DNA of 64,000 nt, from positions 74,648,001 through 74,712,000 of the forward strand of contig OZ296650.1 in NCBI GenBank assembly GCA_965655095.1. The letters are read 5' to 3'. The translations under genes were made by a program, and so were the position numbers. Source of the DNA: Haplodiscus bocki (Eukaryota). This document shows, piece by piece, positions 1 to 50,829 of the stretch (within the stretch, counting starts at the first letter, position 1; the number at the start of each line of letters is the position of its first letter). The notes beneath the pieces are model-generated. The model saw nothing but the letters and a program-made list of their open reading frames with translations, had not been told where the DNA came from and made no database searches.

Positions 1-729
1 TGCTATTGGGTTTTGCGTTCTTTTCTTAAGAAGCCTGAATATTAACTTGTGTATTTTTCCACATGATTTAAATGAGAGAAATAATGCTAAACAGTATATT
101 ACATCAGGGGTTTAAAACTTGAATTTAATAATGGCAGAGTTTGGCGCAAAGTATTTGCAGTACTTTATCAATCGATTTTCACAAGTTCTAATGAACTGCG
201 TGTTTTGTGGTGAGTGATCAATTATGGCTAGATGTTAGCGTAATTTTTCTTCCAGTTTCGTTTACTTCTTTCCGAACACCTCAATCACAACCGGAATGAT
301 ATTTCTAATCAGGTCTAGTTCAGCACCATAGTAGCTGCTGTTTGTTTTACACACTTTTGATGTGTGCCTGCTACTGGTGTTAATCACTAAAAAACACATG
401 CCACACAAACTAACACTGTGAAGCTAAGGATGGTTTTTTCATGTTCTTGCATATGCTTCCCACTGTTCGCTAATTTCTGTTTACCGAATTGTAATGTCAG
501 TGTCTGGCACAATTGAAGCGTCGTCTATTTCACTGATTATTGAAGGAGTTTGTATTGGATGTATTCAGAATAATGTTTCAGAGGAGAGTGTTGGTGGCTA
601 ACTTCGAATGTGTTTTTTTCTGGTTCCGTAATTAAATGGCTTTCTGTTGACTGATAAAAATTTTTTGAAAGAGTTCATGCAAAAAGCACAAACTGGAGTG
701 TTTTGAGGCAGAGTAGGGTTGACATGTGT

Positions 730-1156
730 TTTAAATATTTTGTAGTACATACTCAACTATTCATGAAGCAGTTGAAATTGATGCATCGTTTTCAAAGTTG
801 TATGAAAAACCAGTGGGATTGGTGATGCTGAACAAATTTCAGGCTTCAAAAATTGACGAAGAAAAATGCATCATCATCTCAATCACTTAAATTTGCCATT
901 ATGGCGGCAGCCGAAACTTAGACAAAACTTGATATGTTCTTTAAGTTTTCTTGCCTTGCGTGCACAAAAGACTCTTGTCAAAGGTCTTCTTTCCGTCAGA
1001 TGTTAACTTCAGACAATTGTTATACTTGATTGAAAACCTTAAAATTTGTCTCTGAAGCAGTTTACTCACAGCGTCTGTTCCAGGGGCAAGACAGTTCAAA
1101 ATTGTTTTGCTCAGTTGGAAATTGTTTCGCCTTTTCAATATTTGAACTTTATGCAT
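730..1156 (-). pseudogene. Macrodomain (OARD1/TARG1/Poa1p-like) relic
   Basis: ORF 941-1156 NNFQLSKTILNCLAPGTDAVSKLLQRQI resembles the G-D-(L/I)-F..(S/A)-L-A-H-C-(V/I)-S-x-D-x-x-M-x-x-G-I-A-x-x-F start of this family. Broken downstream frames (SITNPTGFS...IVEYVLQN) fit the P-x-I-G-x-G-L-D..W..V...I C-terminus. Confidence 0.45.
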
Positions 1157-4100
1157 CTAGCGTTCATTTTGTGTTGAACTGAGCCTTTTTCTATACAGCG
1201 CCTGGAAAAGTGTTATTTTTTGGGGAGTTCATTCCGAAGTCCAAGGTCAAAAACCGTTTTTCTTATTTGTTTTCCTTCGCTAGTTCCTCTAGTTCGTAAT
1301 GCCTACAGCTTCAAACGTGGCAATTGTTCGCTGAATTGGGGAAAGGCAGGCAGGTCACGGAAGGTACACCTCATTGCCTACCGGTTCCGTCGTTTGTGGT
1401 TTTCTATTTTTCTCATTCGTCTGAAACTTTCTTTATACTTGTCATCAGCTCACTGATTTGAAACTGAGACACCACCAACCCGACAGCATCATCTCTCCCG
1501 TTGAGCAAGGGTTTGTAGGAGTTTTGTTATTGGTTGTCATTCAACACAAACGTAGAAGATATTTGAAAGTTCATGTTACCACCCATCATCCTGAACGCTA
1601 TGATTGTACGATGTGAGACACCACGTCATCTGATTGGCCGCTGTTAAAGTTTGCGCTTCATTTTTTTTCAAGCTGTTTTTTACCTAATTCATTGATAACC
1701 ACTAATCTTGGCCTCAGTATGAGCCAACGAAGCTTTTGAGTAAGTAGTCAGTCAGCACGTTGGTTCCTGTTTCTGCATCGATTTTGTAATTTTTGCCCTC
1801 GCTCATTTCGTTCTGTGAAACGTATTTTAAAGCGCATTAGGAACACTACAATAGGGTCGGAGAAAAACATTCAACATTGGAATAGGGTCTCATTGGAATT
1901 CCTTTGGAAAATTGTTCGGACTTTTTTTTCGTTTAAGTGAGGTTTGTTTTTGTGTCTTGAGTAAGTGACTAGCTCGTAGTTTTTGAAACTTCTTGTGACC
2001 GACAATAATTTCAATGATTTGACCACTCTAGCAGCGTTGCGTTCGCTTAGTTGATTTGATATACCTTTAATTTTGTTCTCTGCTCTGATGACCTTGTTGC
2101 AATTGATACAAGTATTTGGATCTGTTTGCAAACAATTGCTTTCACTGAAAGCGATGTTTGTTATACCAGGGTCTTTGAAAAGATGGATAGGCTGTTTAGC
2201 ACTTTCTTTCGAACTCTATTAAAATTAAGCAAAGAAAGAAGTTTGTGGAGGAATTTTTTAGTCGTGTCTGTTGAGACTGTTGTGATTGCTACACAAGTGG
2301 AGTGCAATAGTGTTTTCATTGCTTTTCAGCGGGTTAGAAGGTTCAATTCAGGCTTCTAGTTCTGGAGCCTTTGGTTTCTTCCATTGAATTCAATCTCTTT
2401 TCTTCATTTCATTTTACTATGCCAACAGATAGCAACCTTCGGCCGATTGATTGCCTGACTCTGCAAGATCAGTATTGTTGTGAAATTTTTGGTGCCAGTA
2501 GCACTCTGGGTCAATGGCTCCAATAGACAGTCAATGGATCTTTCGGTTACTTTTTCAATTTTTTATATTTTAGGTGTGCTCTCTGTCGCCTCGCCAGTTT
2601 CCTTTCTTCGTTCTATTCTGATACGTTTGACACTACTTTAGCTTCATCATCATTCCATCTTGTTTACCGCACAGTGATGGCAGCCCACCAATGGCTGGAC
2701 TTAGTGTGACAAGCATTGAAGGTTTGGTCGTTAGTTGTCTTATCTACGGTCACACTTTTTCCACCTGCCGGGGTAGCCGTCGCTTTTCATATCCCTGCAT
2801 CTTCCAATATGCCATCCTTGTCTCAGAGTTGTGCTATCTCCCAGAATATTATTCGTAACCGATGGCTCCACCGTCGTTGGTGAGAAACAGCTGCTTTACT
2901 AGAAGAAATCCTTATCGCAGGTCTATCGTCATTGCTTGAAACGACTGCTGTTGGTTCTGTCACTCCTCACTCAGTTACCTGGCCTCTTCCCCCTCTGCAA
3001 GATTTTTGTGTCAGATCCGGCATAAAACCAGGCAAATCAGAATAGATTGATTTTCAAATTGGGACAAGGTTGTGTTGTGTTGACGCTTCGCTCACCATGA
3101 AGAACTTGATTTTTTTGTGATGTTCTTGAATTGGACTGAGTGAAAAACCTAAAAAAGTGATGCGTTAGGCTAGTGTAGAGTATTAAGATTTCTGACTGGT
3201 TCGCTATCTTTCAGAACAACGGTCACAGTTGCTTAGGCGGCGCTACTTATTGGACGGAAAAGTGTCAGTCTGGGTGGGCATATCATGCTCATACCTCGTT
3301 GGGGTCGCTTCTACACAGTCCAGGCTGTGCAAAATGGATCTGTCTAAACTGATGGGAGGGCCCATTGCACCTCAATAGCACTATTGAGGAAAGCAGCACC
3401 AGTTGAAGGAAATGACTCTCCGTTTCCATTTCCAGAAGCCCTTAGCAAACAGGGACTATTCGGAGCCACACAAGAGCATATTGGGCAGAGGATTGCAGTT
3501 GCTGAGTTCCATACGTTTACTTGTAATCGGTGTATCAATAAGTGGCAATCACTTGTTGGATGCATTAAATGAGATAGAGCAGAACATCAGACGACAGATA
3601 CAATCACGATGAGCTGTCAAGACATCTTTTTTATCCGCCAGTCTATCAAAGGTCTGGTCAGCAGAGTTGGGTTGCATACGCCCATGCGGTCAGTTGAAAA
3701 ATTGGAGGTAAAATTTTTGCTCTTTTAGCACTTTCGGTGTCGGATCCTTAACGTCCCAGCAAATCAAGCATGTACGGCCCAATGCATTTTCAGATAAGGC
3801 ATTTTCAAAAAATATGAACATTTTGTGTTGAGTTTCTGATGCGAAAAAAAAATCGTGGAAAACAAAACGAAACGCGAAAAGTTGGTTAGGAAAAACATGA
3901 AAAGTAGAAGAGGTTTACGACAAGTGCGATTAAATTGTTGCATGAAAGCTTGAAAAAACAATATTTATTGAGAATGATTTAGCGAGAAGTCATGTAACTG
4001 CATTGAAGGTTTAGTGTTGCCTGTGTCTTTTTAGCATCATCATCACACGGTAATTCCTGCTGTTGGGGAGAACGTTTAATGTGTTTAGTTAGCAGGAATG

Positions 4101-4793
4101 TCTCTTCTTTTCACGTTGCTAGACTTGGCGCGTCAGGTACTTATCGATGGGCTGTATGGATGAAAGCACGTTGAAAATTTCGTTCTGTACACCATCGCAG
4201 TTGAATCGTCGTGTGAGGGAGACGTGCTGGAAGTTCAAACTTTTGGTTCATAACGTTGAAATGCGGTGAGTGACTTTCAAATATTGGTAGCCGAGAACGT
4301 GGGACACTTTTCCGAACTGGTCGCCCAGGTAGTTGAGTTGTTGGCAACTCTCTATTCTTGCCAAAAGAGACCTGAATTGGTGACTAATAGGATTCGCGGC
4401 ATCAGCTACGGCCATTTCATAGATGTTGATACTTACGGAAATGTGGACTATGTCAGCATAATTCTGTTGTCAGGCCGGAAGGCTAAGCTTCTGGTAAAAT
4501 TTCGGACAAGAAAACTGTTTTTATGATTTTTCTGCAAGATAAGGGTGATTTAAAGGTGGTGAACGTCAAAATATAGAAGGAGCCGCAAAAAAGCAGAGAA
4601 AAAACAAACAACGATTAGTGGCAGCCAGTAATTGAGATAAACTAAGTGTGATTGATCTAGAGCAAAAGACGGAAGTGGGGATCTTTGGGGTCCTTGAATA
4701 GGTTTAATTTTACTGATATTGTTCTAACACTCCTTGCGTTTATGCATACCGTTTCGCAAATAGGTTTTTTTCATGTAAGTGATAGTTGAAACA

Positions 4794-5260
4794 CTAGGAC
4801 CACTTGCTGGCAGATTGAAAGGACAATATAGGATCCTTTGAAACTCGTTGATAAAAAAGCTTGCGCATTCGATGCATGTTTGTTGTGAAAATTGCTCGGA
4901 AAATGACTCTTAGAGGATACGAATTTCTTTTTGCGAAAGTGTGGATGGAGTTTGTCAGCGAGTCAGAACGATGCGTGCCTCTTTTGCACTGTTGGTTTCC
5001 CTTGTCGAAATCAGTACTTAATTGAAGAGGTGAGAATAGCCAACTATAACTTTTGAAAAACGACATCCAAAAAGAAGAAACAACAGTGTTTAAAAACAAG
5101 TGATTTAAAGCGCAGTATAGGCTTCTATGAAATTCGGGAATAAATTGGTTTGCACAGTCTATGAAAAGTTGCTGTAAGGATTTGTTCCAGCCACAGAGAA
5201 TTGTCTGCGCAACGTGGAAGCAATGGACCACTGCATCTGTTCCTAGCTCAACAAGGCTTG
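4794..5260 (-). pseudogene. Macrodomain (OARD1/TARG1/Poa1p-like) relic
   Basis: LGTDAVVHCFHVAQTILCGWNKSLQQLF matches the AHC..D..M..GIA..F motif. An alternative frame gives LFN*V (IYNLVTK-like), and SLTNSIHTFAK matches HA..NNI..IAMP. Confidence 0.55.
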
Positions 5261-5729
5261 TGCATCCTTATATGGCATTGGTCATCACGCTTGAATCAAC
5301 GTCTGTCACAGAAAACTTTCAAGCACTGTTGTCTGAGTGAGGAAACGACACCCGTAGTACAGTTCAGGTTCTCTGCACAGTTTGCTCTTTTTCGTTGGTT
5401 GACGACGTGGAAAAAGCTCCGAGTTGTGATCAGGCCAGTTCGGATTGCTTCGGTTCGACGAGAAAAAAAGTAGTTGTCATTGATTCCACTTCATTGAAAT
5501 CTTTTTTGCAAAAGTAGTCGCGGGTTGTTACCAAAAAACGTCATCAATCTAAAAGGCTCGTTGTCAGTGATGGGAATACTGACAGCCAAAAAGATGGAGA
5601 GGCTGGGATCACAGCGAGTGAAAATGCAGAAGCAGTAATGGTAGACAGAAATCAGTTAGTACGTTGTTCCTGATGTAATATTCATTTTCTTTGCCTGAGA
5701 CAGTTGGATGAAGCCGTTGCGTTCAAGGA

Positions 5730-6191
5730 AGTGAAAAGTCTGACAGTGGCGAAAATTGGATTTTCAGTGACTCTCAGACAAGTTTATAAAACCTCGGTGA
5801 AAGTTTCGTTTTGGAACTTTTGGAGTTTTCGAAAAGTTCCAGCTGAATGACGAGGGGTTGGAATCATGCTAAGTTACATACTCAGGACCTAAGATTTTAA
5901 ATAATGCTGAAGCGAGAAATTTTGTTTCTTTAAGAATATAATAGTTGTTAATATTTGTTTGAAAACTCTTTTATGGCTTTCAGGCAGAGGCGTGTGGCTT
6001 CTGTCTATTGTCATGTCAAGAGGAGCGTTGTATGTATGTTGTGTTGAGGCGTACTGAAAAAGTATCTCAGCTGGATTTTGTTTTCCAAAGAAAGTATCAA
6101 TGCGCGGTTTTTCAAAAAAAATCGAGGATGATCTGTGCAGACTTATGCTACAACTGCAACGACCGGTAGATCCAATCGATTCGTGAGACAA
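5730..6191 (-). pseudogene. Possible third, more diverged macrodomain-like relic
   Basis: PLPESHKRVFKQILTTIIFLKKQNFSLQHYLKS weakly resembles the ..R(F/Y)IYNLVTK..F..KP....L..AL segment. Weak match. Confidence 0.25.
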
Positions 6192-6799
6192 ATAAGGAAC
6201 AGCATCTCCAAAACCTTGTGCAATCAGTTGAAACTGACAGTCTGTACGTCATGCAGCTTTGTTCATCATGAGTTTCGCCGGTGTGGTTTTTTTAAACTTG
6301 AGCATCACTTAATTTGGCAAGACACACGTTTCAGTATTTTGACCTGGTTCTCAAAAGGAGATAGGTGTTCGTGATGCTAGATTCGGGGATTTTGATGACT
6401 GGTTTTTGGTGAATGTAAATTAGGACTCATATCACGTACACTTGGGCTCACTTGGGGATGAAGTGACTTGAAGAAAAGGAGTGTAATGCTAAACATCCCC
6501 AACTAAAGAGATTGAAGAACGTGCTGAGAAAATTCATGGCTTCAAGCTATACAGTCATCGACATATTACGCAGGTTCGCGAATTATCTCCTGGTTGGAAC
6601 CGGGTGATGTCACAACTCAAAACGGTTTTGTTGACTAAAAACAGTTGATGTGCCAAACTCAAAGGAAAGGAGAACACCTGAAGGATTCTCATTGTCAAGT
6701 TCAACGGTGAGTGAAGCTTGTTTGTGATTTTTTGTGACTCGACCCGACATTTTAGCAATGAGTGATTTTTGTTTGTTAATCACATTGGAAGAAGTGTAC

Positions 6800-8000
6800 T
6801 ACTGGCAATCTTCACCTTCATTATCAGGGACTCTATCGTATGGAATGAATTTGCAGAGTTGCTTGCGTGCGCGCATTGTGTCTTGAGTGAGCAAAACTCC
6901 TAACAAGTTATATCGAGTGTGAAAATACTTGCTTCATATTGTACGTATCTTTCCAGAAGAGCGTCGTGAACTGCGTTCTACCGGAATGTGTGGTGTACTT
7001 AGGAACGTGTGGTTTCTTACTTTCAGAGGCTGAATCTTGGTTTTTCAGTCCTAATCGTTCACCAGGCTGTGGTCTATTCCAGACAACTTTGTTTTGGCTT
7101 CCTCGTTGCATTTGTTGAACTTTGTTGACCAATGTGGTGGGGTTGGTCGAGCTTCAAAAGCTTTTTATAAGTTTACTAAAATTTAGTTCGAGTGCGTTGC
7201 GTGGAAGTCGTTTTTTTGAAAATTTATATTGGTGTACAAGTAAAAGGATTTGTGGAAAGTGTTGTTCTGGGCCAAAACTGCTAAGTTAACATATTAATCC
7301 AAGTAACGTGTATCAGTTGAGACGATAACTTCCAGATTCTGTTCCAACTATTGATGATGACTTCAAAGCAGCAAAGTTTACTGACACAGTGAAATTTCTC
7401 GTTTCCGGTGCTTGCATCAAATTATTGATTACCTCTGAGAAAAAGGTACTGCCCTCCTCACTGAGAATGTGTCGAGGTACGTATGCAGGCTGTGAGATAA
7501 TCTTAGACAATCTGTGGACTAGGGAGCTAGCGTGTAGTTCTCGGGGTGTTTTTTTGAATTGGTAGTCGGAAAACGCAACAGAGGCAGTCACAACATTGCT
7601 AAAACCGTTTGAGGTTTGTAGATTACTTACCAGATGAATCCGCATGATACATTCAAAGCCATCACAAGCGTCAAAAATTCGTGCTGTAAAGGAACGAAAA
7701 CTAGTGTTTTTACAGGGCTGAGTCTCGACACGCAGTCGACAGTTGTTGATGTAGGTTTGGTTGGCAAGAGCTAAGTTTGTTGCGAGAAAACGCTTTAAGA
7801 TTATAGTTGTCCAAACAATCTTCGTGTGCACGAATGTCCTTGCATTGGGTTTTTTGGCAGTGTCCGGGATATGTCATCAACCATGGGGTCGGAGACTGAA
7901 ATTCTCGAATAAAAGACATTACTTGTGTTTTCAAACACTTGCTGTAGATAACGTCATCAACTACTTGATTCTTGGTTTTTGTTATGGTTCTCGATAGTTA
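6800..8000 (-). pseudogene. Gypsy integrase (rve core + GPY/F C-terminus), degenerate
   Basis: ORF 7313-7831 MRIHLVSNLQTSNGFSNVVTASVAFSDYQF..P...ASSLVHRL..I..Q.AYVPRHILSEEGSTFFSEVI matches the IDLVG.LP.SNG...ILT..D.FS.Y.FA.P / P..I.SD.G..F.S rve pattern. FWKDTYNMKQVFS near 6950 matches W.GPY.V..V.S. Confidence 0.85.
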
Positions 8001-8399
8001 CTGTAAAAACCTGCCTCTGAAGCTGACGTGGATAATTGGGACTCCGCTGTCGGAGATGACGTGGATAATCGTTTGACTGTCAGGTTCTGTGAGCTGTGCT
8101 ATAAACACATGGGCTTTGGTTTGAGGTTAACCTGGTTCACTACGTGATGGTAAGGCGATGTTTCGGCATCAGACTAATTGAACCAGTCAGTGTCACAAAA
8201 GGTGCCCGTTGCTGATTTTTGAGCAGCTGTTGGATGAATTTTTCTTTGCCTCGCTGTGCTTTGTCACATTTTCATCCTGGTTTGGAGACTGTCGCCATAA
8301 TCGCGTGGTATTGCGTTTGAAACAAACTCGAAGGCAAGACCTGCTCTGGTGAGATCACTTCGTAGTTTTTGAACTATCCTGTTTCCTCAGCCTCCTTCG

Positions 8400-9520
8400 G
8401 TGTTTCTTAAGCCCTGTCTTTTTCAATGTTGTGAAATTTGATTTGTTGCAGAGTTATCTCTTAGTACATTGAGGTTCTCTCAACACTGGACGATTCGCTG
8501 CCAAACTTATCAAATGCAAGACGTACCGTATACAATCCCGTTTCCGCAAGGTGTGAAGGAGAGACAGAGAAAGAGAAACTTTTGTCCGGTGATGAATCGC
8601 CTAGGACCGAAACATCAGAGGCATCGACCTCAACCTGCTATCTGTTGGTTTCAGTTGCAATTTCGATCGGCAAAACATTGACTGCCGTGCGTTTGGTAGC
8701 GTCAAGAATGACGACTTGCTATTTGTTTTTTGGATGCAGACATCAAGGAGGAGAAGTTGTTGGCAGGTTGGGGGGCTACGTTTTTTTGAAGGTCAAAAAT
8801 GGTGCTTTATTGTATTGCAATAACTGAAATTTGACGCGTTTTCGGCCAAATTGAATCAAAGGTTTCAGTTTATTGGTGCCGCGGGTTCCTTTTGCTTTTG
8901 AGTTTTTACAAAATTTGTTCACATTCGCATGGACTTCACAGTTGAAGCAAGATGAGGTTTGTTTATTTTCTGTTATTGCTTCGGAAAGAAGTAATTACTG
9001 CTTGTTGATGGTTTGTCAAACCTTTCAGTTTTGTCTTCGACAAACGTATTTTTGATCGTTGATAGTTTCCTCCGCCTAATAACAGATTCAATGTTTTACA
9101 GTTATTGTTCTGTAATCTGAGCAGCTTTGCATAATTGCTCATGATACGGTTTTCATCTATCAACTTGAAATACGAAGTCAAGAGACTCGCCAACGACACT
9201 CCTAGACGCTGACAATCTCCTGTTCAAGCATTGTGCAGGCCACAGACTTGCAGGATTTCACGCGCTGAAACTGAAAAACAATGACGACTATGGTTGCCCG
9301 TCTTCAATCTGGATGCATTCGAAGGCTTCAGAACTATCAACAAACGAAAGTTTTGTACGGCTTCACATACGGAAAAAAACTTACATATGGCGTCTTCCAT
9401 GTTCGTCGCAACGGATATACTTCGAAGTTCAAAAGATAAGCTTACGGCTGGAAAATTTCGGTGATAATTTACCAACAACCGTTCTTTGACAATTCGTTCT
9501 TCGGGTGTCGGTTAAAATTC
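8400..9520 (-). pseudogene. Gypsy reverse transcriptase / RNase H, degenerate
   Basis: 8719-8662 (-) reads QVVILDATKRTAVNVLPIE, matching the Gypsy RNase H start (F.I.CDAS..AAG.VL.IE). Upstream fragments resemble the RT thumb and the LLVEYHDIF-type N-terminus. Confidence 0.7.
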
Positions 9521-10169
9521 GCCTTGAGTTTTTTGATCAAAAATGCCTTCTTCTGGTGACTATTCACGCTGAGATCCAGTTTCTCGAGCTCGCTTAGTTC
9601 GTGTATCTTTTTTTACACGCGTCTTTCAATCAAAGGGGTTGAAGTGGGTGGAACCACAAACGTCTCAGACGAGGGTGACAACCTTGTCCAATGTCAGTGC
9701 TTCCAATGAAAATATTAGTTGGTTGATGACATTCGAAGCTAAATCTGGGTATGGAGGTAGCAGAGTTTTTAAGTGCCGTTACAACAACTCGACATGGATA
9801 GCTTGTCCGGGCGTCAGATTCGTAAGGTTTGTAACTACTATCCTTTAGCTGTAGGTGAAAGATTATTTTTCGAAGAATGAATTTTCGATCAGATTGCTGC
9901 TCATAGTTTTCTCTGAAACTTTATCATCACGGAACAACCGGAAAAATTTTTTGGGACTGTTACTATGCTGGCAATCAGAATATGTTTCGTGGGGCAGGTA
10001 CTTTATCCATCAAGTTCAGGGGGTTCAAGACTTCAGCGTAGTTCTTCTTGTGACAGCTTTATTTGGAAAGTGTTATTCAACATGCGAACTTTTTTACCAA
10101 GTCTCAGTAGCAGTTAGTTTTCGTATTTTAGTGTCTAGTTCCTTGTTGTGACTCAGATGTTTCTGCTTT

Positions 10170-11300
10170 ATGCTAGTGCTGTAACCACAACACAAATTTG
10201 GACGCTTTCTTGAAAGTGAGGTTTTCTTTTTCTTGGACTGTCGTTAGTTGTTTCTTCGAATTGTTGTCGTCTTGTTTCAATGGCCTCATTTCCGGCAAAA
10301 TTTTTTCTTTTGTTGAAGTGATAAACGTTTTTAGGTACTTGAACCACTTCAAAGCTTTTGTTCTAGGTACAGATCTCCTTAGGATGCTGAGGACATCCTT
10401 CGGTTTTACTGATTTCATTTTTTGGTTTTTATGACTGTTTGATTGTATGTTTTGGACCACGTGCACATTTTACGTCAGGGTTTTTGGTTTTTTTAGTTGT
10501 TTGCTGGGATTAGCTTGGGAGCAATATCTAAAGTCTGATCGTGTGCTTATTTGACAAGTTTCGCGTGGTGGGCTGTTCAGAATCTTCTTAGATTTGCAGT
10601 TTCTTGAACTATTATCTGAAACTTCTTTTAATTTTGTGCTGCCTTTTGTTCTTTTGTTTGCTGTAGAAAAGGCTGCGTTAGATTGAACCTCCTCTCGAAG
10701 GTTGTATGCAGCTGCCTAATGAATATCCATTGCAATCCCAGTTTTAGCAGATAAGCTCTGAATCGTATTTCGGTTTTTTGTTTAGGGATAGTCTTTTTCC
10801 CATGGTCCATTTTTCTGGAGTTGGTCACGTTTCTCGGATGCGCATTGGTTCTCACGTTTGCCTCATCTGCTGCAGTAATGATACCGTCAAACATGGATTT
10901 GTCCTCAGCTTTAGTGCCATAGGATCAGCGTGTTCGTTGGTTGCTGAACAGTTCTCCGAAAGGTTGCTGCTTTGTTGTCTACGAGAAGAGTTGCTGATAC
11001 AGGATTCTTTGATGGATGAAAGTTGTTGAGCTGCACGCTTGCGTTTAAGTTCCTCACTGTTGAGAGTTCGTGTTCGTTTTGGACGTGGAGTTTTCCATTG
11101 TTCTCCAAATATAAAGATTCTGTCGTGAAAGACTTGTTTGAATGTTTTTGCCAGGTCTTCAAGACTCCAGAGAAAGTTACTCCGGCGGTGTTGTCAACCA
11201 GTTGGTTCCATTTTAGTTTGGAGAGCTGATTGAATTGACCGTTGTAGAATTCTTAACGATACCTGTTGAGAACACTTTCTGATTTCAGAGGAACTGCGCA
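10170..11300 (-). pseudogene. Gypsy gag-like region, degenerate
   Basis: Lies upstream of pol, with broken basic and helical ORF fragments (10173-10466, 10628-10894, 10911-11162). Assignment is mainly positional. Confidence 0.45.
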
Positions 11301-12829
11301 GTAGTTATCAGAAGTCGGTAACCTCTTCTCTCAGAAGTCACGAGTTAATAGCACTTAGTCTCTTCGAAGATGCCATGCTGATGGGGGACGTTATTGATTG
11401 GAAAGAACAGGGTCAAAGTCGTGAAACTTGTCTTTTGAGGTTGTGAAAATGGAGATCTGAGTGTTCAACATGCAATTTGGAGTAGTAGAACTTTGATTTA
11501 TGTATGGCAAGTTGTTGTGATGTCTGACCCATAGCTGACTGAGTCATTCTCGTCATCCAAGATGAGTTGTCTCTGTTTGCTGGGGTTGTTGACTAAAGAT
11601 GTCATCCTTTGTCCTATGCTGTGAGTTGGTTCAGTGGTCCTGTCATCTTATCAGACTGACTGCCGGAGTTTTTTGAAGGTCTTTGCCCCAGTTTCTTATC
11701 TTTTTTGTTACGTCTTGAATATATGTATCTCACGTCTTATATGAGACCGCAGAGAGGTTTTAGTTGTTTCATCGGGGGTTAATTGCAGCCGTAGTCTATC
11801 TGGACGTATTCTCAGACGTCGCAAAATATCTTGTTTGTTCTTTTCATTGCTTACATCCAGCTTGTCCTTTCCATATAAACTATAGTTCTCTTCGTCATCA
11901 TCATTTGAATACGCTGCATGGGGATGAGTTGGGCACAACTGATTTTTTCAGAAATTTTTTGGTTCAGGAATATGACTCAGAAGTGCAAAGAGCACAGTTT
12001 TCGTAACACTTTTTTTACACAGTGTTATGTAAGGATTAAGGATAGCAAAAGTTCAGGTTACGTTGGGTTTCAACCTTACAGTGAGTTCCTTTGAGCCCTA
12101 TCAAGTAGCGTAATCTATGCTTTGTGACCAACTTTTGTTAGTTCATAGCCTGATTTTATGCTCAACAATTTTTGGTTATCTGCTCTGGAACTTCGTTCAA
12201 CACCTTGGTGGTAGCGCTAATCAGAACTGATTTGTGACACGAGGACGGCAGATTCAAAATGCACTCTGACTGGACGATTAAGGAAGTCCATTGTAGCCAA
12301 AGGTCTGAAAATTGGCCAAAAGGTTTGTCTCTTGTGGCTGAAAAAGCTTTTAGAGCACTGGCACATGACTGTCACCTCGTCAGCTCTTTTTCTGGTTGAC
12401 AAAATATTGATGTCTAGCACGTTTGACAAACCTCGTTAAATTTTTTCAGTACTATTGTTTGTTTTTGAAGCGTGCCAATTCACAACTAGCACGGGAGTCA
12501 AGGGTTAATTTGCAGTCGATCATTATTGCTTCATTATGTGGTGTTTCCACGTGGGCTGTTCATGGTGTTAAACGATTTTTTAGGCCAGGAACGCAAAATA
12601 AACTAAAGTAGTGCTTGGTGGCGCTATATAGTGCATCATCGCGTTCTTATCAGTAGGTAAAAAGTCAGTAGTGGCGTTTCTTTCGAGATTTGTTTATGAA
12701 GCTGTTTAAAATGCTTATGTTTTTTTGATGATAGTTAATAAATAAAGGGCTTGATAATAAGAGATAGACTAATTGCCTGTTATCTTACAAAGTTTATGTT
12801 TCAAACAGCGTTCAACTTCTCCGAAAATT

Positions 12830-13374
12830 TTGAATTTTCGGGCTTGAATTCGGTTTCTTCAATTTGCTGGTAGGAAGCCCGAATGCCTAAATTTCGTGGT
12901 AGGAGTCCCAGAATCCTGAATTTTTGGTGGGAATCCTGTGTTTTCTGGCTTCTTGGTTGGATCTAGGTTCAAGATCTCAATGCGTGAAATTCGGAAACAA
13001 TTGCGCTAAATGCAATAAAGATTTTATATAATGTCCCATCCCTAATAATATCCTCTACGACTGCGCTATATTTGCCCTTGACAATAAAACTTCCATGTTG
13101 ATAAAATTGCAACGTGTTATTTGATATTTAATCAGCTAGGAAGTTTTATTGTCAAAGAGAGCTTAGCGCAGTGGTAAAGCATTTAGATACTGTCAGACGC
13201 AACTGCCTCGAACCCGTGTGTCATCCTTTTTTTTTAGTTTTTTTGCAAGTGTTCATCCTGGATAATCTTCCATGATCTTGCATGATCCTGGAAAGATTAC
13301 TGGATGTTTCTTTTAGGAATCTTAATGAATCCTGGATTGATCCTGGCAAGAAATCCAGGAAATCAAGCGCTGGG
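12830..13374. mobile_element. Non-autonomous DNA-transposon-like element with short (GA/AA)TCCTG/GATCTT subterminal repeats, central palindrome and ...GCGCTGGG end
   Basis: Many ATCCTG/ATCTT motifs occur at 12880-12980 and 13250-13365. The sequence ends CAAGCGCTGGG at 13374 (a CCCAG-type terminus as in animal CMC/EnSpm elements). Internal inverted repeat at 13053-13094 / 13139-13179. Confidence 0.45.
13053..13179. repeat. Imperfect inverted repeat with 17-bp perfect core, each arm ending in a tRNA A-box-like motif
   Basis: TTGACAATAAAACTTCC (13078-13094) pairs with GGAAGTTTTATTGTCAA (13139-13155). The outer parts read TAGCGCAGTCGTAGAG (-) and TAGCGCAGTGGTAAAG (+). Confidence 0.85.
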
Positions 13375-13959
13375 CGTCACGCTGGCATGACACAAGTAGC
13401 CGCCTGCAACAAGTATAGCCGGAGAGTTATTACGAGAAGTCGTCCGTAATTTGTTGGTCCTATAAAAACAGAAAACGTTTTAACACGGTTGAACTGCTTT
13501 TTTGGGTGTCTTGTGATTCCAAGAGCATCCATCTCTATTAAAAACAGCACCTAGACGCTCTCATTGCTCGAAGATATTCAAAATTCACAAAATACAGCTA
13601 TGACACGTACACAATTATTTGTGGGGAAAAAGGCTATTTAATAATCGTGGAAAATATTCCATTAAATGGCGTGCCTAAAATGATAAGAATGGAGTCACCA
13701 ACTCTAGTGCCGTCACTATTTCTGTCCAGTTGTTTAAGAGCCATAAAGCTAACCAAAAAGCAATAAAGTTTTTAAACGTCTTTCTTTGGAACTAAAAAGC
13801 AGAAAAAATTGACCTAAATTACATATTGATGGAAGAAAGTGTGTGCAAAATGCGAATGAGATACAAATTTTGTAGACTTTAAAATTGATGAACAGACTGT
13901 TCCGCTTTCTTCAATATTAATGAAATTTATAATTGCTCCCGTGAGTCATTCCTCCTCAG

Positions 13960-14829
13960 ATGTACACAATTTATTCACGTGACCCAGCAAAACCCAGGAA
14001 AGCCTATCTGAAGCGAGGGATTCTGTACGCAAAAGGATTCAATAGTAGTAGCAGTACATTATCAGATGAAACTCACTTCTCAAATGGGTATCAATTTCCG
14101 ATACCTGGCTTTAGCTCTTTTGACAATGCGATCACTGAATCAAAACCCGATTTCTTCAGACCTAGCAGAGACGCATTTAGCAACAAAATTTACAAAAGAC
14201 AAAACTCAGTTCCCAACACGTTGCATTTTCAGGTGTTCGAAACGCATTCTTCCACCAACAGAGCCCAACAAAGTGCGTCTGAGTTGGGTAACCTGAATGA
14301 TAATAAATATTGCCTAAAAGCCTCGACGATCGACGTGTTGCACAGAACAGAATTCTTTACCAACTCTTCCTTAGGTAGCTTACAGAGGCAATGGAAGCAT
14401 GGCACTTTCGGAGACAAGAATTATCAAAAATCAAGCGTCTCTTCTCGACAAGAAAGACTTGAACAGCTTCGACAACAGAAGCTGCAGCGATTGCTAAATC
14501 GAGAGGCGTTAGTGAAGAGACAGAAACATTTGAAATATGTGGGACTTTGGAGAAAGGCGATAAAGAAGATCACGAGACAGCAACAAGAACGAAAACTTCG
14601 ATTGCACATGTATTGGGTCAATGCATCCAAAGAGCTGATGAAGAAACATTTCAAAAGGAAATCCGATAAAATTCAGGATCAATATGCGTTGTTATGTTCT
14701 GAGATGGGTCGCCTCCTAGTGGACGAATGGCACGATTTCAAGCAGAAAGATTTCAGTCTAGGTGACGTCATGCAAGAGATTGACAACGACCACCAACGGA
14801 AACTTGTGGATGAGATGAAAGCAAAAATT
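13960..14829 (+). CDS. Probable first coding exon of a host gene of unknown function (coiled-coil-rich C-terminal half)
   Basis: Longest ORF in the window (309 aa), with an ATG start and no TE motifs. A consensus donor ATT|GTGAGT at 14829/14830 precedes the T-rich ORF tail. Confidence 0.7.
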
Positions 14830-15588
14830 GTGAGTGTTTTACTGTTTTACTTATTTTCCAAACTTGTAATTTCCAAAATATTTGTATAGCTGTGTCTATC
14901 CCTTGCAACAGACCTCAAACTGTGCCCCAAAAAACCTGCATGTGAATTTCCGCACAATTCACCAGAGTACATGGTTGGTACTGCTATGCTTGTGAATTAT
15001 ATTTCGTATATTAGCATAATTTTGTAACCTACAGATAATGATACCAGACGGTTCTTGTGTCAATTTTGTTACTCCTGGGCCATGGACAACCCAGAAAATC
15101 CTATTAGGCTATCAATAAGTCCTGTTAATCCTGATCCCACCATTTCAAACCTAAATTCCTTTGATCTCAATTAACGAGGTGTTTATGGAATTTGATCAAG
15201 AGCAACCTTTAAATTTTCATAAGCTTTGCACCTTAATTTTTTTCTGAAGAATAACAAACTTGCAACCCCCCTGACATAACCCTCATATCAAATCACAAAT
15301 TTTCCATTTCTCTATGGGACCAAAATGAAAAAAGAACTGATAGCAACGAAAGATTTCGAAGTTTGATGCGAGACAGCATTTTAAAACTCGAAGAATAATA
15401 TTGGGAAAAGTTTGATGATAGACTATTAATTCAAATGTTTCTTGCATTCCAGGAAGGGTTTTTTTGCAAGCATCAGTGCTCATTACCCGCCATATGACGA
15501 ATGTCTCTGACTACGGCTCTCCATGGAGTACAATTACCAGCATCTTGTTTTGCAATTGTAAACCAGTTTTCTTCCCATTTTTTCTTAG

Positions 15589-21206: not shown

Positions 21207-24200
21207 CGCTGCTGCCACCATTCTAAGATTCGCCGATGCGCCCTTATTGTATCACATTCTAGGACATAATTGAAGATTGGCGGCCTCCTGCCAAAAAGCA
21301 CCGGTAATGTTGCCTATATCTTAGAAAGAGAACGCAGCTAAATTATGATAACGTAGTTCAATATTTTGAAGATATTTTTTGGAGGACTCCAATAGATATC
21401 CTTCAGTTTTTGAGATAAAACATTATTGGACTTGACTTACTTTCACAAATCTGATACCACAATTTTGCGGATGATTTTTTTTGTCTCAAAACAAGCAAAA
21501 AGCAGCTTTTGCTTGGAAAACTGTGATCACTACGTTGTATATATGCTATCACTTTGTGAACTGATCAAAATTTTTAAACAGAAGATTGAATTTCAGTTAT
21601 TGCTAATAGCAACTTCTGTTCATCAACATCTGAAAAGAGGTAAAGTTTCTGGGTTCCGCCCAAAACTTAATACATAACACGGAAACATTTTTTGAGCTAC
21701 AATAAAATCAATGTAAGGTTGTCTGCTAACGGAGGAACTTTGCTAACATCGTCGCTCGGCGCTTTTTTGCCCGGAACGCCGGTATCCGCCGCTATTTTGC
21801 AACGAAGTACCGGGCACGGCGGCACTTTTCTCCTTCCGTTGTGAACAAAAGTTCGGCCCAGGTTTGGAAATAATCTCCAAAGATCTTGTACGGCTCCGAA
21901 ACCTGACGCAAAACTCTTTGAGGTGCATGAGATTTTATTTTGCAAAAAAGATCATTTTTTGTTTTACTTATTCAAACGCCGAATCAACTGTTTACTCAAT
22001 GACAAGGTAAGAGCTCAGAGCAACTGAATGAGCAAATCGAGTTTAGAGCTAGGTCTAATACATTGCATTCAAAAAGCTCGCAAGAAACAAATTCGTGAAC
22101 TAATTTGCATCTTAAATATTTAGAACGCTAAGAACAGCTCCTCAAACACAACTCAGCATTACCCATCAACCAAACACAAAAAATGGGGGAGCAAAAAAAT
22201 TCAACCGTTTTTGGCCCGGAATTTTGTCTCACAGTGCCAAAAACTCATAGGTTAGGCTCCCTTGGTACCTTTTATTCACAGTGGGACATTATATACCTTC
22301 TCTCTTGCACAGATAAACGTTTAAGCTGTAGACTAGATGCGCTAGTACTGGAGTAATTGTCAATCACGACGGCCAATCATGTATTCAAAATTGGATGTGC
22401 TACCAAAAACAAACGATGTCACCTCAAAAGTCGATTTTTTTTCGAAGTCCCGGCAAACAAATTCTATTTTTGTCGGCCTTGTAGTAATTTTACCAAGAAG
22501 CACAAGTATTACAATATTAACATTTTTTGCGTGCTGTGTTGGAACTTACAGGTAAGCATACTCTTGAAGTTTTCCCCAAAAACAAATGCTATAAATGTTT
22601 TTGGTATTCTTCGGTGGCATCTTTCAAATAATTTTCTGAAAAACAAACAGCAAAAAGTTCTATGATAATAGAATTTTTCGTTTTGCACATCCGAACTTGA
22701 AAAAAAAAACAGGTATGTGAAATCTTCGAGACACCGCCTGTTCTATTATTTTTTCGGAAAAATTCGGTCATCTGCTTGTAATTCCCTGTTTCTGGAAAAG
22801 CAAATTGTGATGAGTGTGTGTTTGCCGGTCAATGTTCCTTTCGTTGACCAACAAATCACCCTCCTCTACGGTAATATTGCCACGAGTCTCCTCGATCCTA
22901 TTTAGGTCTGTACGTGAGTTTATTCTGCTAGAAGCGGTCATTTGTAGGCCTTCAATATTACCCGAGAAATCCCTCTGATCAAGTTCCAATACATTACCGT
23001 CAACACTCCGTTTTGAAGACGCATTGGCTGACTTCATGGCCAATTCTACCCTTGCAATCGCCAAACTTTCATTGGCAGCCAGTACTGCATCTTGCACTCT
23101 AGTTTCGACCGTTGTCATCACACTATCCACTTCCCTTCGTACTTTACTAACAATGATTTTCTCAAGTGTGTACATATCCACTTGTGGATAATTAGCTTGA
23201 CTTGTATCGTTGGTATTGTTCAAAGAATTAGCTCTGTTTGCCATGTTTTTTATACCTTCAGCTTCAGCACTGTGATTGCTTTGTCCAATAATAAAATCAG
23301 CGTCGAATTCACTTAACTGGCTCAAGAGCATTTTATTTTGCTGTTTTTTGTTCTGAGTAGAAACCATATTGGAATTAACAAATGAATGAACCAATGGAGT
23401 CGAACAAGTTACTACAAATTGAACAGTAAAAGACTAACACAAGAAAATAGCGAGAAATCAGTTCTGAGAGTTCTGGAGCGACTTGTCGTTAGGTCTGCAA
23501 ATTTTTTATGAAGCATCTTTTTCAGGTCAACTCCCAGTCGTGTCTTTTTATTCGACTTGAAGTTTGTCCTCCAATCAGGGTACTTTGTTTCATGACGTCA
23601 CAACTGCAACTACAACTAGAACCATGGCTATAAATAACATAAAAGGGAAAATACCGCAAATACATGACATCATACTATAAAAAGCAACAAATTAAAATTA
23701 CCAAAATAGCATAATTATGGTTTTCCTAAAACATAATACTTTTTATGAGAACTCCATGTACTCAAATTTAAAAGCATCAGAGTGGTTATGTTAGCTGGTT
23801 GTAGGGCTAAGGATTGTGCTAAAACACCTTTAAAAGAGTTTTTGGACTATTTTTCGGTTTAGGTCAAAATTATGAAGCGTGAACGGTGTTTATCCAAATA
23901 GGTAGGTCAAACACCGCTCAATGAAGGTTAGCTTGACCGATATTTATAAAATACCTCCAAAAAGATAAATTATCAGTTAGTATGTGATTTATGAGCTCCG
24001 ACTGGTTCTCTTCATGGAATTTGACGTTGCTCAACATCAAGCACCCCCATAATTGAGTGAATATAGTTAGTTTTAGGCTATTAGCCAATGAGAATAGAGA
24101 ACCGCCACAATCAATTGTTTACGTCCTGGTACAGTATTTAGATTTTTGCTCGCTTTCAATTTGACGTTTCCGTCTATGGTATGGATTTACTTTATATGTA

Positions 24201-25872: not shown

Positions 25873-26098
25873 TTGGAAAAAGGTTGGTGTTTGACTTATC
25901 TGAGGCATTTTTTTTTGGTTTTTGCCAATACGAAAAATAAGTATGGGGGTGTCGGGAAAAAAATTTATGTTTAGTGGTCGATTTTTGGATTTTTCTTCTC
26001 GGTTTTTGCCTGTGCGAATTTTTTCGTCGGTACTGCTATATGCTATCTGGGAGGTTTTTTAGTACGTTCTACAACTTTAGGGGACGCCAGCAGTCAAG
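25873..26098 (+). repeat. Interspersed repeat segment, copy 1 (second copy at 29604-29828)
   Basis: Shared blocks TGAGGCATTT, GAAAAATAAGTATGGGGGTGTC, GGTACTGCTATATGCTATCTGGGAGGTTTTTT, TACGTTCTACAACTTTA. Confidence 0.85.
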
Positions 26099-26099
26099 A

Positions 26100-29000
26100 G
26101 CTCGCTTCAACAGCTGATCAAACTCGAAGAAATAGAAAAACTGAAACGCCAAATCATGAAAGAACATCAACAACAAATTAAAGGCTCACGACATGATGAA
26201 CATTTGAAAATGCTACTTGAATGTGAGCTCATTGAGAGCTATAACAGGCGAGACAATGGTAGAATAATTGGCCTGAAGGGAAAGACTAAAACTGATAACA
26301 AGAACCGAATCAAACATGAATCTCTGGACGAACCAATTGATAAATTTGTAAAACTCTCCAAGAAACATGAAAAAGTTCTATCATTGCTTTGTCTCAACGC
26401 ACGTTCTTTGAATAAACATCTACATGACCTTGAAGCACTAGTATTTTGCCTTGAGTCTCCGCCTCTCGTACTCCATCTTACCAAAATATGGCTCAAAAAA
26501 TGATAATGGTCGAAATCGCGCAGCCGGATACATGGAACTCGAAGTTAGCAAAAGATGAAATCGCTATGGAGGTGCTATGATCCAACTGCGAAAAAATAAC
26601 AACACTATACAGACATATGGAAGCCCGTTTGAGGAGAGCATATTTGTTCTAATCGATGACTTCAGGTTCCTGTTTAGACTGCCTTGCAATTTTATTCCGC
26701 CTCGAAACATAAAATTTGACTTTGTTCATGTTTTAGGTCAATTTCTGGAGAAAAAAACGTCAAAAAAATTCCCACCATAATATGCGGCGTTATTACTAAA
26801 GACGTTAGACCAAATAACCCCTTGATGTTCAAATATCCTACTGCTAAAGAGGCAAATGGCTTCAAGATGGTATCAAATGAAGCTACAAGAATGACGCATA
26901 TTGAACCAACTTTTATAGGTCACGTTATAACCCAACTTTTGGAAACTAATGTTAATGTTCTCAAACAGCAAAGTGTTTTCGACCATGAAGTTCTTTTAGT
27001 TACGTGGAATGCACGCACACCTGAAACTATTTTTACTTCCTATAAAGAATTTTTTCAAAGAGGATCAATATAATTAAACGGTACGCGCAACTGCTTTCAC
27101 AGAGCTATCCGAAGCAAGTGAGGAAATAAAAAATAGTGATTGCGTTACCTTGAATAATTTGATTGATTCCAACACTGATTTCTGAATTTAACTCATGACT
27201 TCGTCCATTGGAGAGAATTAATTCGAACTTCCAACTTACCGAAATGGTGTAATCATCGAATCGAAAATTGATCCAGTAAGAGAAACGTATTTCATAGGCA
27301 ATGGAAAAATAACCAGTCTAACGGAGCATTCCTTCAATACTTCAAGCACATTAGACGGAGAACAGAAACTGAAATTCAGAAAATCAACAAATATACTGTT
27401 TAAACAAACTTGAGAAGTCTATGGGAAACTCGAAGCATTTTCATATATTGCCTAATTAAATCAAAAGTCAAAAACGAACGAGCACTCAAATACGTATGCT
27501 AAAATCCTGCAAATCACATTTCGAAAACCCTACTATGAAAGATATTGCTAACCAGCTAAACGAATATTTCAATGATATCGGCAATTCGGTTTCACAGGAT
27601 TTGCCGAACGTAAATCTTATTTTGCAAGATATAGTGAATCGTAGCATGCTCCTAGAGAGAAAAAACTGTAGCGAAGTTTGTTAGATACTTGAATCTCTTG
27701 AAAAAAAATGGTCTGGTGGCGATGAATTACAAAAAGTTATAGTCAAGTGGACGCGTAATGTCACTGTTCCTTATGTAAGTGACCTTATCGATCAACCTTT
27801 TTCTTAGAAACTTTTTCCAGATATCCTCAGAAAGCTAAGATAAATCCTGCTGATAGAAGGTGCTTTGAAACAGACGAGGACCATTACCGGCCAATATCAC
27901 TGCTTAATGTTTGGAGTGAATATTTTGAAAGGGTGATGCACAACACACTTTAATCATAATTTTAAAAAATTGGGCTTCATCGTGACAAACAAATTGGTTT
28001 TAGGAAAAAACACTCTACTGTTGAGGCTATCGTTGAATTGACGGAACGAATACGCGAACAAAATACCAGAATTGGCAGGATTTTTTTTTCTTAATTTGCG
28101 GAAAGAATTTGATTTTATTGATCACTCTTCACTAATAAAAAAATTTTAAGTCCTACAGGTTGCATATTAACTGCTATAATTGGTTAGCGAGTTACCTATC
28201 TGATAGACAACAATGAGTCCAGCTGGTTGATGGCTCCTCAGATTGGACGATGATATCTCGTGGTGTTTCTCAGGGTTCAATCTTAGGGCCGCTTCTCTTT
28301 TCAATAAATAGAAAATACCTACCCAAAGTTTCAAAATACACTGAATTGTTTTTGTTCGCTGATGATACAAATGTAACTGCTCACAATCAAACAACTGAAA
28401 AGATAGCATTTGAATTAGGAGAAATCTTCAATTGGCTTATTGCGAATAAACTGGTGGCAAAGATAAGTAAAACTTTTGAGATTTCATTAGGTTCCAGTTC
28501 TTCGAGTTCTGTACAACACCCCTAATCCATTATTAACTCGATCATTAGTGCTACTACCAACTTTATGTAACTAGGAACAACAATTGATTTTAGGCTCTTT
28601 TTTCAGTCGCATTTTGTTTGATTTCTGGAGAGACTCGGAAAACAGAGTGGAATTATATGTACGCTAAGGCAATTTGTTCCAAGAAAACATTCGAAAGACT
28701 ATTACAAATTCAACATAAACCGTGTTAGCCAGTAGGATGTCCTGGTGTATGGATGTAGTAGTAGAACAAAATTGAATCCCATATTTACCTTGCAAAAGGA
28801 AACATTTCAAAAGATTTTTTACAGGACAAAACGTGACCACTTCTAAGACTTATTTGTTTTTAATGAAGTCCTAACTCTGAACGAATTCTATGTTTATGAA
28901 CTGCGTAACTTCGTACTGCGGTCTTTGACAAAAAGCCATGAAAAAGCTTTTCTAGTTGAACTTTTTTTGTTTTGAAACTTCAAACCAAACCACCCGTGGA

Positions 29001-33106: not shown

Positions 33107-33134
33107 GCCATAATACCCAATATGACATATAATG

Positions 33135-34389: not shown

Positions 34390-34849
34390 CATATAATGGT
34401 AGTCCTGATTTAATATTTAGAAGTAATTAACCTAAATTACTTCAGCTTTAAGCTCAATTATTTAATTTCTTAAGCCGATAACTTCATTCAGTATTTTAGG
34501 AGATTTTGACTCAGGAGATTCTGACATAGGAGATTTTGACTTGGGAGATTTTGGCAAAGGAGATTTTGACCTGACACCATTGTATTAACCTAACTATTGT
34601 AGCAAAATTTGCATTCAAAGAGCAGATGAAAGGAGCTGCAAAACTTCGAGCTCTAGTCCGTGAACAAATTGCCTTTAGCAACAGATTCAACTCAGTATAT
34701 AGGGTGGTTGTTAGGAATACAAAAAATTCATCATTATTAATGCAGAAAGAGCCTTAATAAGTTAATATTCCCGTAGAGAAGAAACATTAAGTTACCTTCA
34801 GGGACTCAGATATGTACAGAGAAGAATTTGTTATGATGTTGAACATGTC

Positions 34850-41330: not shown

Positions 41331-41485
41331 ACATCATTTTTTTGATAGACGTGAGTTCAAGATTCCGAAGGAATTGTTTCTTGCGTGAGGGGGGAAGATG
41401 GGATGTTACCGGGGTTTGTTCTAGGTTAGCTTTTCGGTTGAAGTGATATAAACCAAAATACCAATGTTCATGTTATCGCGGAGAA

Positions 41486-50230: not shown

Positions 50231-50377
50231 CTTAGACTTTAGTTGATGTTTTTATCTCTAGCTTTGGTAATAAAAACATTTCATTTCTAGCTTTTTATTT
50301 TGATTCATCGTCTTTTGAAGAAAGCAAGGTTTTGAAGTTCTGTATATTTCAACGTACGCGAAGATAAGTATAAAGCT

Positions 50378-50811: not shown

Positions 50812-50829
50812 CAACGATTGGTTTCCAGC

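Follow-up and report, generated by a model that had tools for sequence, protein, structure and literature searches.

An ordinary Gypsy fossil in Haplodiscus bocki with probable post-integrase cargo lacking a family match

Terminal repeats and pol traces

The window analysed, a 64-kb stretch of Haplodiscus bocki DNA (64,000 nucleotides), is crowded with nested decayed elements. At its beginning, the following features were distinguished.

162-697, minus strand: probable 3' LTR, heavily decayed
720-6900, minus strand: post-integrase segment of approximately 6.2 kb between the integrase end and the probable 3' LTR, some part of it, at the minimum, old coding sequence
730-1156, minus strand: claimed macrodomain A, without support; adjoins the probable 3' LTR
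4794-5260, minus strand: claimed macrodomain B, without support; a 157-codon open frame (4797-5267) occupies the same stretch
4813-4893, minus strand: duplicated Cys motif, copy 2, 289 nt downstream of copy 1 and one frame shifted
5102-5182, minus strand: duplicated Cys-containing motif, copy 1 (81 nt, 27 codons), resembling 4813-4893
5730-6191, minus strand: claimed macrodomain C, not supported
6904-7929, minus strand: decayed Gypsy-type integrase with zinc-binding, core and C-terminal parts, from profile scores and the ESM Atlas
8369-8931, minus strand: weak RNase H trace
9008-9680, minus strand: weak reverse transcriptase (RT) trace
9700-12070, minus strand: presumed gag/protease position, from its place between LTR and RT trace
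12073-12602, minus strand: probable 5' LTR, heavily decayed

The outermost features were found to align to each other as a direct repeat on a single diagonal of approximately 540 nt (offset 11905-11917), with a score of 46.6 bits that was reached by 0 of 150 nulls (under four scorings). This pair ranked first or second of 3660 tile pairs under four scorings, with an expected chance count of 0.014-0.027 wherever it ranked first, and its members were reciprocal best matches in the whole window (approximately 290 tiles, both strands). Only a core of approximately 150 nt (12079-12232 and 169-320) was significant by itself, the remaining two thirds having z near 0, and the K80 distance between the copies was 0.68-0.96. 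No TG...CA ends, TSD, PBS or PPT could be read by eye at the repeat ends, where the sequence is heavily decayed. The two stretches are a very old direct repeat and probably an LTR pair. They are separated by approximately 11.4 kb and delimit an element of approximately 12.4 kb on the minus strand. The keto skew had the same sign in 24 of the 26 500-nt bins across 1-13000 and reversed past 13.5 kb.

The integrase relic (7929-6904) reached 33.8 bits, where the highest null score was 23.8. Against shuffled profiles its z was 9.3, with 0 of 60 as high; in a look-elsewhere test over 14 kb, 0 of 30 were as high. Its best path needs two frameshifts and nine stops, and the first two catalytic aspartate positions were not conserved. 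The ESM Atlas identified it as rve/Integrase_H2C2 at 0.93 (recognition 3392). Upstream of it, the traces of RT (9680-9008; z 3.2-4.2 at the site alone) and RNase H (8931-8369; z 2.1-2.5 at the site) were collinear with the integrase, and both lost significance after look-elsewhere correction: the RT trace was the top RT site within 14 kb, yet 3-4 of 30 shuffled profiles equalled it, and the RNase H trace was the second-ranked local site, without significance alone. The codon periodicity of the pol region was z = 2.0-2.4, which is a weak test. Pfam scans and other searches of 9700-12070 gave no match to gag or aspartic protease; a weak RNase H-like score lies inside this region (11378-10827; 26.1 bits, 0/30 local, 1/30 glocal).

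The integrase relic and the probable LTR pair support the Gypsy-type architecture with a long post-integrase stretch that had been proposed in the original prediction, and the LTR pair encloses approximately 6.2 kb beyond the integrase. The description of the element as giant was not upheld, since 12.4 kb (approximately 11.4 kb internal) falls short of the bar for giant LTR retrotransposons given in the cited passage of PMC6431247, an internal region of over 20 kb.

The segment downstream of the integrase

Approximately 6.9 kb of the window lies beyond the integrase. It had been described as approximately 7 kb of same-strand coding-like sequence; the length and the single sign of keto skew were confirmed, whereas a coding signal was found only locally, at 4813-5182. 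For 1-6500 taken together, codon periodicity was z = 0.2 (a weak test), and stop-codon and periodicity tests are too weak to settle the coding status of the segment. The AT skew within it ranged from -0.28 to +0.10.

Scans with Pfam and other libraries gave no family match in the segment, and none to GDSL, DEDDy or env; the Pfam scan covered frames of full and of short length, in which stops were written as X, together with 150 of the 181 open stretches of at least 72 aa. Neither tblastn of 120 long proteins nor 268 chunk scans from 20 of those matched env or other cargo, and no tRNA or Rfam match was obtained. The segment showed no similarity to other elements in the window and contained no inner TIR or LTR pair that was stable across scorings. 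Two internal matches were set aside: the repeat 5015-4713 versus 2394-2085, which was no better than null when scored in two other ways, and the inverted match 4588-4284 versus 5258-5534, which three other scorings did not place among their top pairs.

The local coding signal contains the duplicated Cys motif. Its two copies are 68% identical as DNA and share 14 of 26 residues as protein, a similarity reached by 0 of 200 nulls, and 14 of the 26 mismatches between them fall at third positions (Fisher p = 0.008). A third copy at 663-710 was marginal. Because of this 27-codon internal duplication with third-position bias, locus B is coding without being a single macrodomain, and the residues common to the copies differ from those of the TARG1 profile.

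Search for macrodomains

The original prediction had placed relics of TARG1/OARD1 macrodomains at loci A, B and C. Scores used to evaluate this were composition-free, because composition-confounded scoring put unrelated open ORFs highest, and shuffled profiles served as nulls both window-wide and per site. A T4 Tk.4 profile (116 sequences, a neighbouring subclass) gave no match and was replaced by TARG1 profiles built from 115 bacterial sequences and from two sets of macrodomains (120 and 29) excised from long proteins. Profile A1 matches human TARG1/OARD1 (PDB 4J5R), the reference class, with E=1e-44; no window locus matches this class. When real TARG1 genes were decayed to the LTR-calibrated level, z exceeded 1.5 in 47 of 48 simulations; z was 3.0-19.5 at d=0.45 (32/32) and above 1.5 in 15 of 16 simulations at d=0.5 with 10 indels.

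While equally decayed controls were detected, frameshift-aware alignment of the three loci to TARG1-class profiles gave only background scores, with z of -1.0 to 1.4 overall, 0.2-1.4 for A and -0.6 to 0.5 for C, and 36-83% of minus-strand bins equalled or exceeded them. Window-wide, nothing scored by the TARG1 profiles exceeded shuffled profiles, and no match came from a profile built on 12 macro copies that are degenerate or partial. A Macro domain was not matched in the tested frames with Pfam, PHROGs or NCBIfam, of which Pfam Macro is weak for the TARG1 class (approximately 25 bits even on intact copies).

The ORF at 4797-5267 matched only itself among 1.84 billion representatives and in a 5.8-billion set; it had no match in a PDB sequence search and no usable match in the Atlas (recognition 1145), and phage tblastn with it returned noise only. 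With hhalign, the probability of locus B against the TARG1 alignment was 0.2%, and that of pieces of locus A was at most 0.3%. The single-sequence model of B was all-helical without a Foldseek match, at a confidence too low to inform (pLDDT 44). The catalytic pattern TKx(30,35)Px[IL]GxGxD, in which the catalytic residues of TARG1 are K84 and D125 according to the cited text of PMC6397177, and three sub-patterns were absent from all frames of 1-12700, a search of low power given that approximately 45% of residues survive at d~0.4. A second macrodomain starting near 4970 was rejected (z at most 1.7).

The loci did not behave as a multi-copy module either. Their mutual DNA similarity was within the null (27, 137 and 78 of 200 shuffles were as high over the three pairings), no cross-match was found at the protein level, and the internal duplication in B is out of frame. 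By eye, the frames at these loci have the correct length and a few suggestive residues, which explains the earlier reading; it was probably pattern-matching on noise. No canonical TARG1 domain is detectable in the element at the level of its sequence.

Comparison with known elements and interpretation

The premise that env is the most an ordinary Gypsy element has at this position does not hold. Non-env 3' ORFs have been published: in the cited passages, the ORF3s of rotifer elements are a GDSL esterase or a DEDDy exonuclease (PMC5408684), and bdelloid Vesta/Juno, plant Ogre and Cyclops have, like the present element, an LTR-gag-pol-extra segment-LTR order, a total of approximately 12 kb and non-env cargo downstream of pol (PMC5408684, PMC6431247). 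In contrast to theirs, the cargo in the window is fully decayed, has no GDSL, DEDDy or env match and is known from one copy. The planarian Burro is likewise a Gypsy lineage of invertebrates and is rich in accessory domains, but, as described in the cited part of PMC6431247, it exceeds 30 kb and carries its cargo in a huge ORF1 upstream of pol, whereas the element described here has its extra DNA after the integrase.

TARG1-class domains, too, occur in Gypsy polyproteins, in some of them downstream of the integrase. Among the matches listed, 12 of 120 long TARG1-domain proteins had retroelement domains together with an intact catalytic motif; the retroelement-borne domains scored 128-151 bits and kept the catalytic pattern in 12 of 12. 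An in-frame TARG1/OARD1-class domain was found in the Gypsy polyproteins P0149, P0158, P0177, P0182, P0212 and P0214, Littorina XP_070175640.1 and Athalia XP_048515544.1, and it lies downstream of the integrase in P0182, P0212, P0179 and P0159. This is the architecture that had been proposed for the window, where the loci are at background. Across retroelement polyproteins, domains with the intact Lys/Asp pattern occupy four different positions; the number of captures is not settled by the macrodomain tree, which was quick and poorly resolved. The literature precedent found for macro domains in retroelements was in fish retroviruses only. According to the passage in PMC4977317 that cites Basta et al. 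2009, fish epsilon-like endogenous retroviruses are likewise LTR retroelements with a macro domain accessory ORF; they are retroviruses, not Gypsy elements.

Taken together, the features are most readily read, with modest confidence, as a single long-dead Ty3/Gypsy-type element of approximately 12.4 kb on the minus strand, with LTRs, gag-pol and a 6.2-kb extra segment containing one or more accessory ORFs. Its 5' LTR would lie near 12.6-12.07 kb, followed by gag-pol to approximately 6.9 kb, the 6.2-kb segment and the 3' LTR at 0.7-0.16 kb. The active element would have been transcribed from LTR to LTR, so that the extra segment would have been carried inside the genomic RNA. This segment most likely comprised untranslated sequence and, where env or ORF3 would lie, at least one lineage-specific accessory ORF, in an arrangement that may resemble that of rotifer Vesta/Juno or plant Ogre, and one accessory ORF may have had the repeated Cys-containing motif. 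After insertion, each LTR would have gained approximately 0.35-0.45 substitutions per site and every ORF would have been broken; the present copy is probably inactive and decaying neutrally.

There is a smaller but real chance that the post-integrase stretch is a patchwork of ancient nested insertions or of host DNA that was captured, that the terminal match is a dispersed repeat, or both, with no family-level cargo. The LTR match is firm over approximately 150 nt only, the variation in AT skew is as expected of nested insertions, the segment has no overall coding signal, and the window is rich in such insertions. However, the repeat lies at the expected LTR positions on one diagonal, its copies are each other's best match window-wide, and the segment resembles no other element in the window and holds no stable inner TIR or LTR pair.

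An unlikely reading is that between one and three Poa1p/TARG1-like macrodomains were encoded in the segment, had already diverged far before insertion and are now below detection; they would have removed or bound ADP-ribose on proteins of the element or on nucleic acid. Because the element's own core (RT, RNase H) is barely visible, a diverged domain in the cargo might go unseen, and an ancestor at the distance of Tk.4 often reached only z 1-2 in simulated decay at d=0.3-0.4. Precedents are the post-integrase TARG1 domains listed above and degenerate second copies, which are present in P0149 and in further multidomain proteins, where they reach only 7-44 bits undecayed. Locus B has, by eye, a His-Cys and then Gly and Phe, spaced as in the TARG1 family, only 3 stops against approximately 11.5 expected (a weak test) and, with the Tk.4 profile, a glocal z of 2.4 at the site, without window-wide significance; the corresponding z for C was 1.3-2.0. 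Nevertheless, A, B and C did not rise above background with any of four profiles, TARG1-class or degenerate-copy, and lacked mutual similarity, the duplicated motif of B shares residues other than those of the profile, and the Atlas identifies the integrase, which is just as old, but not B. Even if present, such domains would give no eraser enzyme, because the degenerate copies lack the catalytic pattern (0/12).

Slightly more doubtful still is a dedicated cassette of approximately 6 kb, downstream of the integrase in an animal Gypsy lineage, in which two to three highly diverged macrodomains and the Cys motif would have acted as an ADP-ribose eraser or decoy against host PARP/sirtuin defence, as the multi-copy end of repeated TARG1 capture. 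A single macrodomain relic on the plus strand at approximately 5419-5860, as an antisense ORF or inverted insertion, is very improbable: it gives the highest local score of the TARG1 profiles in the window (22.4 bits; with the bacterial profile, z 4.0-5.2 for the site alone, in a single frame without a shift), but it was chosen after the fact and rejected, as shuffled profiles matched it window-wide (2/12 local and 8/12 glocal with the bacterial profile, at least 10/12 with the eukaryotic profile), its hhalign probability was 1-2%, and it had no library match.

The long-dead Gypsy-type element, as it stands, is of little import, another defunct LTR element whose extra segment can no longer be read. 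Should younger copies keep the 6-kb cassette, it would represent a new type of accessory gene for animal Gypsy elements. The retroelement-borne TARG1 domains point to a recurring link between retrotransposons and ADP-ribosylation, which is better studied on intact proteins than on this fossil; L1 is silenced by SIRT6-dependent ADP-ribosylation, as stated in the cited part of PMC4695847.

The Gypsy-type element and its surroundings

Because standard library scans gave no matches over positions 1-13000, custom profiles from retrieved Gypsy polyproteins (seven sequences each) were used with a frameshift-aware and decay-aware aligner. On the minus strand, an integrase relic was demonstrated at 7929-6904 (33.8 bits vs a null maximum of 23.8; z=9.3; 0/30 shuffled profiles as high across 14 kb), with an alignment path crossing 9 stops and 2 frameshifts. 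The ESM Atlas independently assigned it to rve/Integrase_H2C2 clusters at 0.93. The Gypsy-type element itself is real. Upstream of the integrase, two weak traces followed each other in Gypsy order:

9680-9008, minus strand: putative RT trace (z 3-4 at the site; not significant window-wide)
8931-8369, minus strand: putative RNase H trace (z 2-2.5 at the site; not significant window-wide)

An RNase H-like score of 26.1 bits (0/30 local) was also recorded at 10827-11378 (minus strand), upstream of the RT trace and in abnormal order; this was either chance or a piece of another element.

Ordinary repeat searches detected no LTRs, and no TSD, PBS or PPT was readable at the element ends. In a soft-matrix alignment, 162-697 matched 12073-12602 with 48% identity over 554 columns; under four scorings, 0/150 nulls were as good. 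The two segments were reciprocal best among ~290 tiles and ranked first or second among 3660 tile pairs, with offsets confined to 11905-11917. A 150-nt core alone was significant (z=9.0), the remaining two thirds having z of ~0; the LTRs may extend in full beyond this core. Judged from this alignment, the segments are a probable LTR pair, which gives an element of ~12.4 kb with ~6.2 kb from the integrase to the 3' LTR. Strand skew was consistent over the LTR-to-LTR span, and K80 between the copies was 0.68-0.96, i.e. about 0.35-0.45 per copy. The predicted architecture, a Gypsy-type element with a long stretch behind the integrase, was thus supported, and the label "giant" was not, since ~12.4 kb falls short of the 20-kb bar in passages of PMC6431247.

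Passages of PMC9911081 describe LTR elements as abundant in acoel-like animal genomes. The window is repeat-rich eukaryotic DNA (GC 30-48%) with satellite, nested inverted-repeat elements and numerous broken ORFs. Other features were as follows:

13050-13225: palindromic element directly beyond the 5' LTR, plus a tRNA-like stretch by eye (no ARAGORN call)
13945-14886, plus strand: open frame of 314 codons without a family match, possibly a host exon
22806-23602, minus strand: 797-bp segment with TG...CA ends, resembling a solo LTR that contains an ORF (most of the 221-codon frame 22771-23433); no clear kinship to the element at 162-12602
26081-28522, plus strand: LINE-type relic (RVT_1 match 28217-28522, E=2.7e-6)
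31200-34600: nested inverted repeats of 15-bp units surrounding a FLYWCH ORF at 33451-34191 (E=3e-9); their probable class is that of Mutator-like DNA transposons
40909-43926: ~1505 bp duplicated in tandem at 99.9% identity amid decayed DNA; a very recent event or an assembly artefact
43812-44982: degenerate 27-bp repeat, long open frames on both strands
45000-58000, minus strand: series of broken ORFs, which by eye we take to resemble a decayed Polinton/Maverick; sole clear Pfam match, a C2H2 finger at 48100-48345
59750-64000: satellite with a 277-bp unit (15.3 copies, 98% matches)

Macrodomain search at loci A, B and C

Several TARG1/OARD1-like macrodomain relics had been predicted behind the integrase:

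730-1156, minus strand: locus A
4794-5260, minus strand: locus B, coinciding with the 157-codon open frame ORF B (4797-5267)
5730-6191, minus strand: locus C

The references were 115 bacterial TARG1-class proteins, whose alignment matched human TARG1 (E=1e-44), and 120 such domains excised from long proteins. Scores were composition-free, with shuffled profiles as nulls. The three loci scored z of -1.0 to 1.4 (-0.6 to 1.3 at a lower frameshift cost); 36-83% of minus-strand bins equalled or exceeded them in raw glocal score, and across the window no site exceeded shuffled profiles. For locus B, hhalign against the TARG1 alignment gave 0.2%. ORF B had zero relatives among 1.84 billion representatives and was blank in the ESM Atlas, although the integrase was recognised there. 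With profile scores at background, the macrodomains were not borne out; nor were multiple copies of one module, as the loci had no mutual similarity.

Power was estimated with eight real bacterial TARG1 genes decayed at random, which are close to the profile and not lineage-specific. Up to a simulated decay level d of 0.6, z was 5.1 or more in 40/40 controls; at d=0.45 with 4-8 indels it was 3.0-19.5 in 32/32, and at d=0.5 with 10 indels it exceeded 1.5 in 15/16. Power dropped at d=0.8-1.0, and already at d=0.3-0.4 for an ancestor as distant as Tk.4, the T4 macrodomain of a neighbouring subclass. Natural degenerate second macrodomain copies scored 7-44 bits without any decay. A canonical TARG1 relic is absent from the three loci.

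Nature of the segment behind the integrase

A local coding signal was demonstrated in locus B, where an 81-nt segment is present twice (5182-5102 and 4893-4813; 68% identity; 0/200 nulls). In the ORF B frame, the first, second and third codon positions held 4, 8 and 14 mismatches, respectively (third-position excess: Fisher p=0.008, binomial p=0.025), and 14/26 residues, two cysteines among them, were common to both copies. This duplication is the sole direct evidence of past minus-strand protein coding in the extra segment (720-6900). Codon periodicity over 1-6500, a weak test, gave z=0.2 vs about 2-2.4 in pol.

The explanation that we hold somewhat more probable than all others together is a single dead Gypsy-type element with a lineage-specific accessory segment, which would have been carried at the ORF3 position inside the LTR-to-LTR transcript, the copy now presumably decaying neutrally. 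The cargo would then be a family trait and may have been expressed. LTR retrotransposons with non-env ORF3s and fish ERVs with macro domain ORFs are described in passages of PMC5408684 and PMC4977317, respectively. According to a passage of PMC4695847, L1 is silenced through SIRT6-dependent ADP-ribosylation. That the segment is instead nested or captured DNA has perhaps one chance in several. Diverged macrodomains are unlikely: because power was high for the controls and low for diverged ancestors and degenerate copies, only a canonical relic is rejected and room is left for a strongly diverged one; the second 81-nt copy, within the claimed locus B span and one frame shifted, argues against a single macrodomain there. 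A macrodomain relic on the plus strand is very improbable, the weak macrodomain-like patch at 5419-5860 lying within look-elsewhere noise.

TARG1-class domains in other retroelement proteins

When longer proteins were searched with the TARG1 alignment, 414 of the 8000 candidates scored were matches. Retroelement domains were found in at least 12 proteins (12/120 among the matches listed), with RVT_1 in 7; a Gypsy and macrodomain architecture, as predicted for the window element, is therefore not new and already present in retroelement polyproteins.

Macrodomain position in long TARG1-domain proteins from outside the window (P handles)
Before protease: P0178
Between protease and RT: P0177, P0190
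After RNase H: P0149, P0158, P0214, P0189
After integrase: P0182, P0212, P0179, P0191, P0159

The TARG1 catalytic pattern, as given in passages of PMC6397177, was kept in 12/12 of these macrodomains, the retrieval profile favouring that pattern. Named hosts were Littorina saxatilis and Athalia rosae. P0149 carried an additional, degenerate second copy. In a quick tree, the domains were scattered among eukaryote-side sequences without resolution.

Six multidomain proteins (P0160, P0170, P0219, P0153, P0154 and P0169; three named from insects) had a single intact TARG1 domain with one or two degenerate copies behind it. Many further long matches among those listed were DNA ligase III-type proteins with a fused macro domain.

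Among the matching passages listed from bioRxiv 10.1101/2021.11.30.470311, none dealt with macro-transposon fusions, and among the literature matches listed (few subscription journals, without Repbase or supplements), no title or abstract opening was dedicated to TARG1 in Gypsy pol. Retroelement polyproteins thus contain fused TARG1-class domains, their catalytic pattern intact, in four different positions, and these proteins are a better lead than this window.
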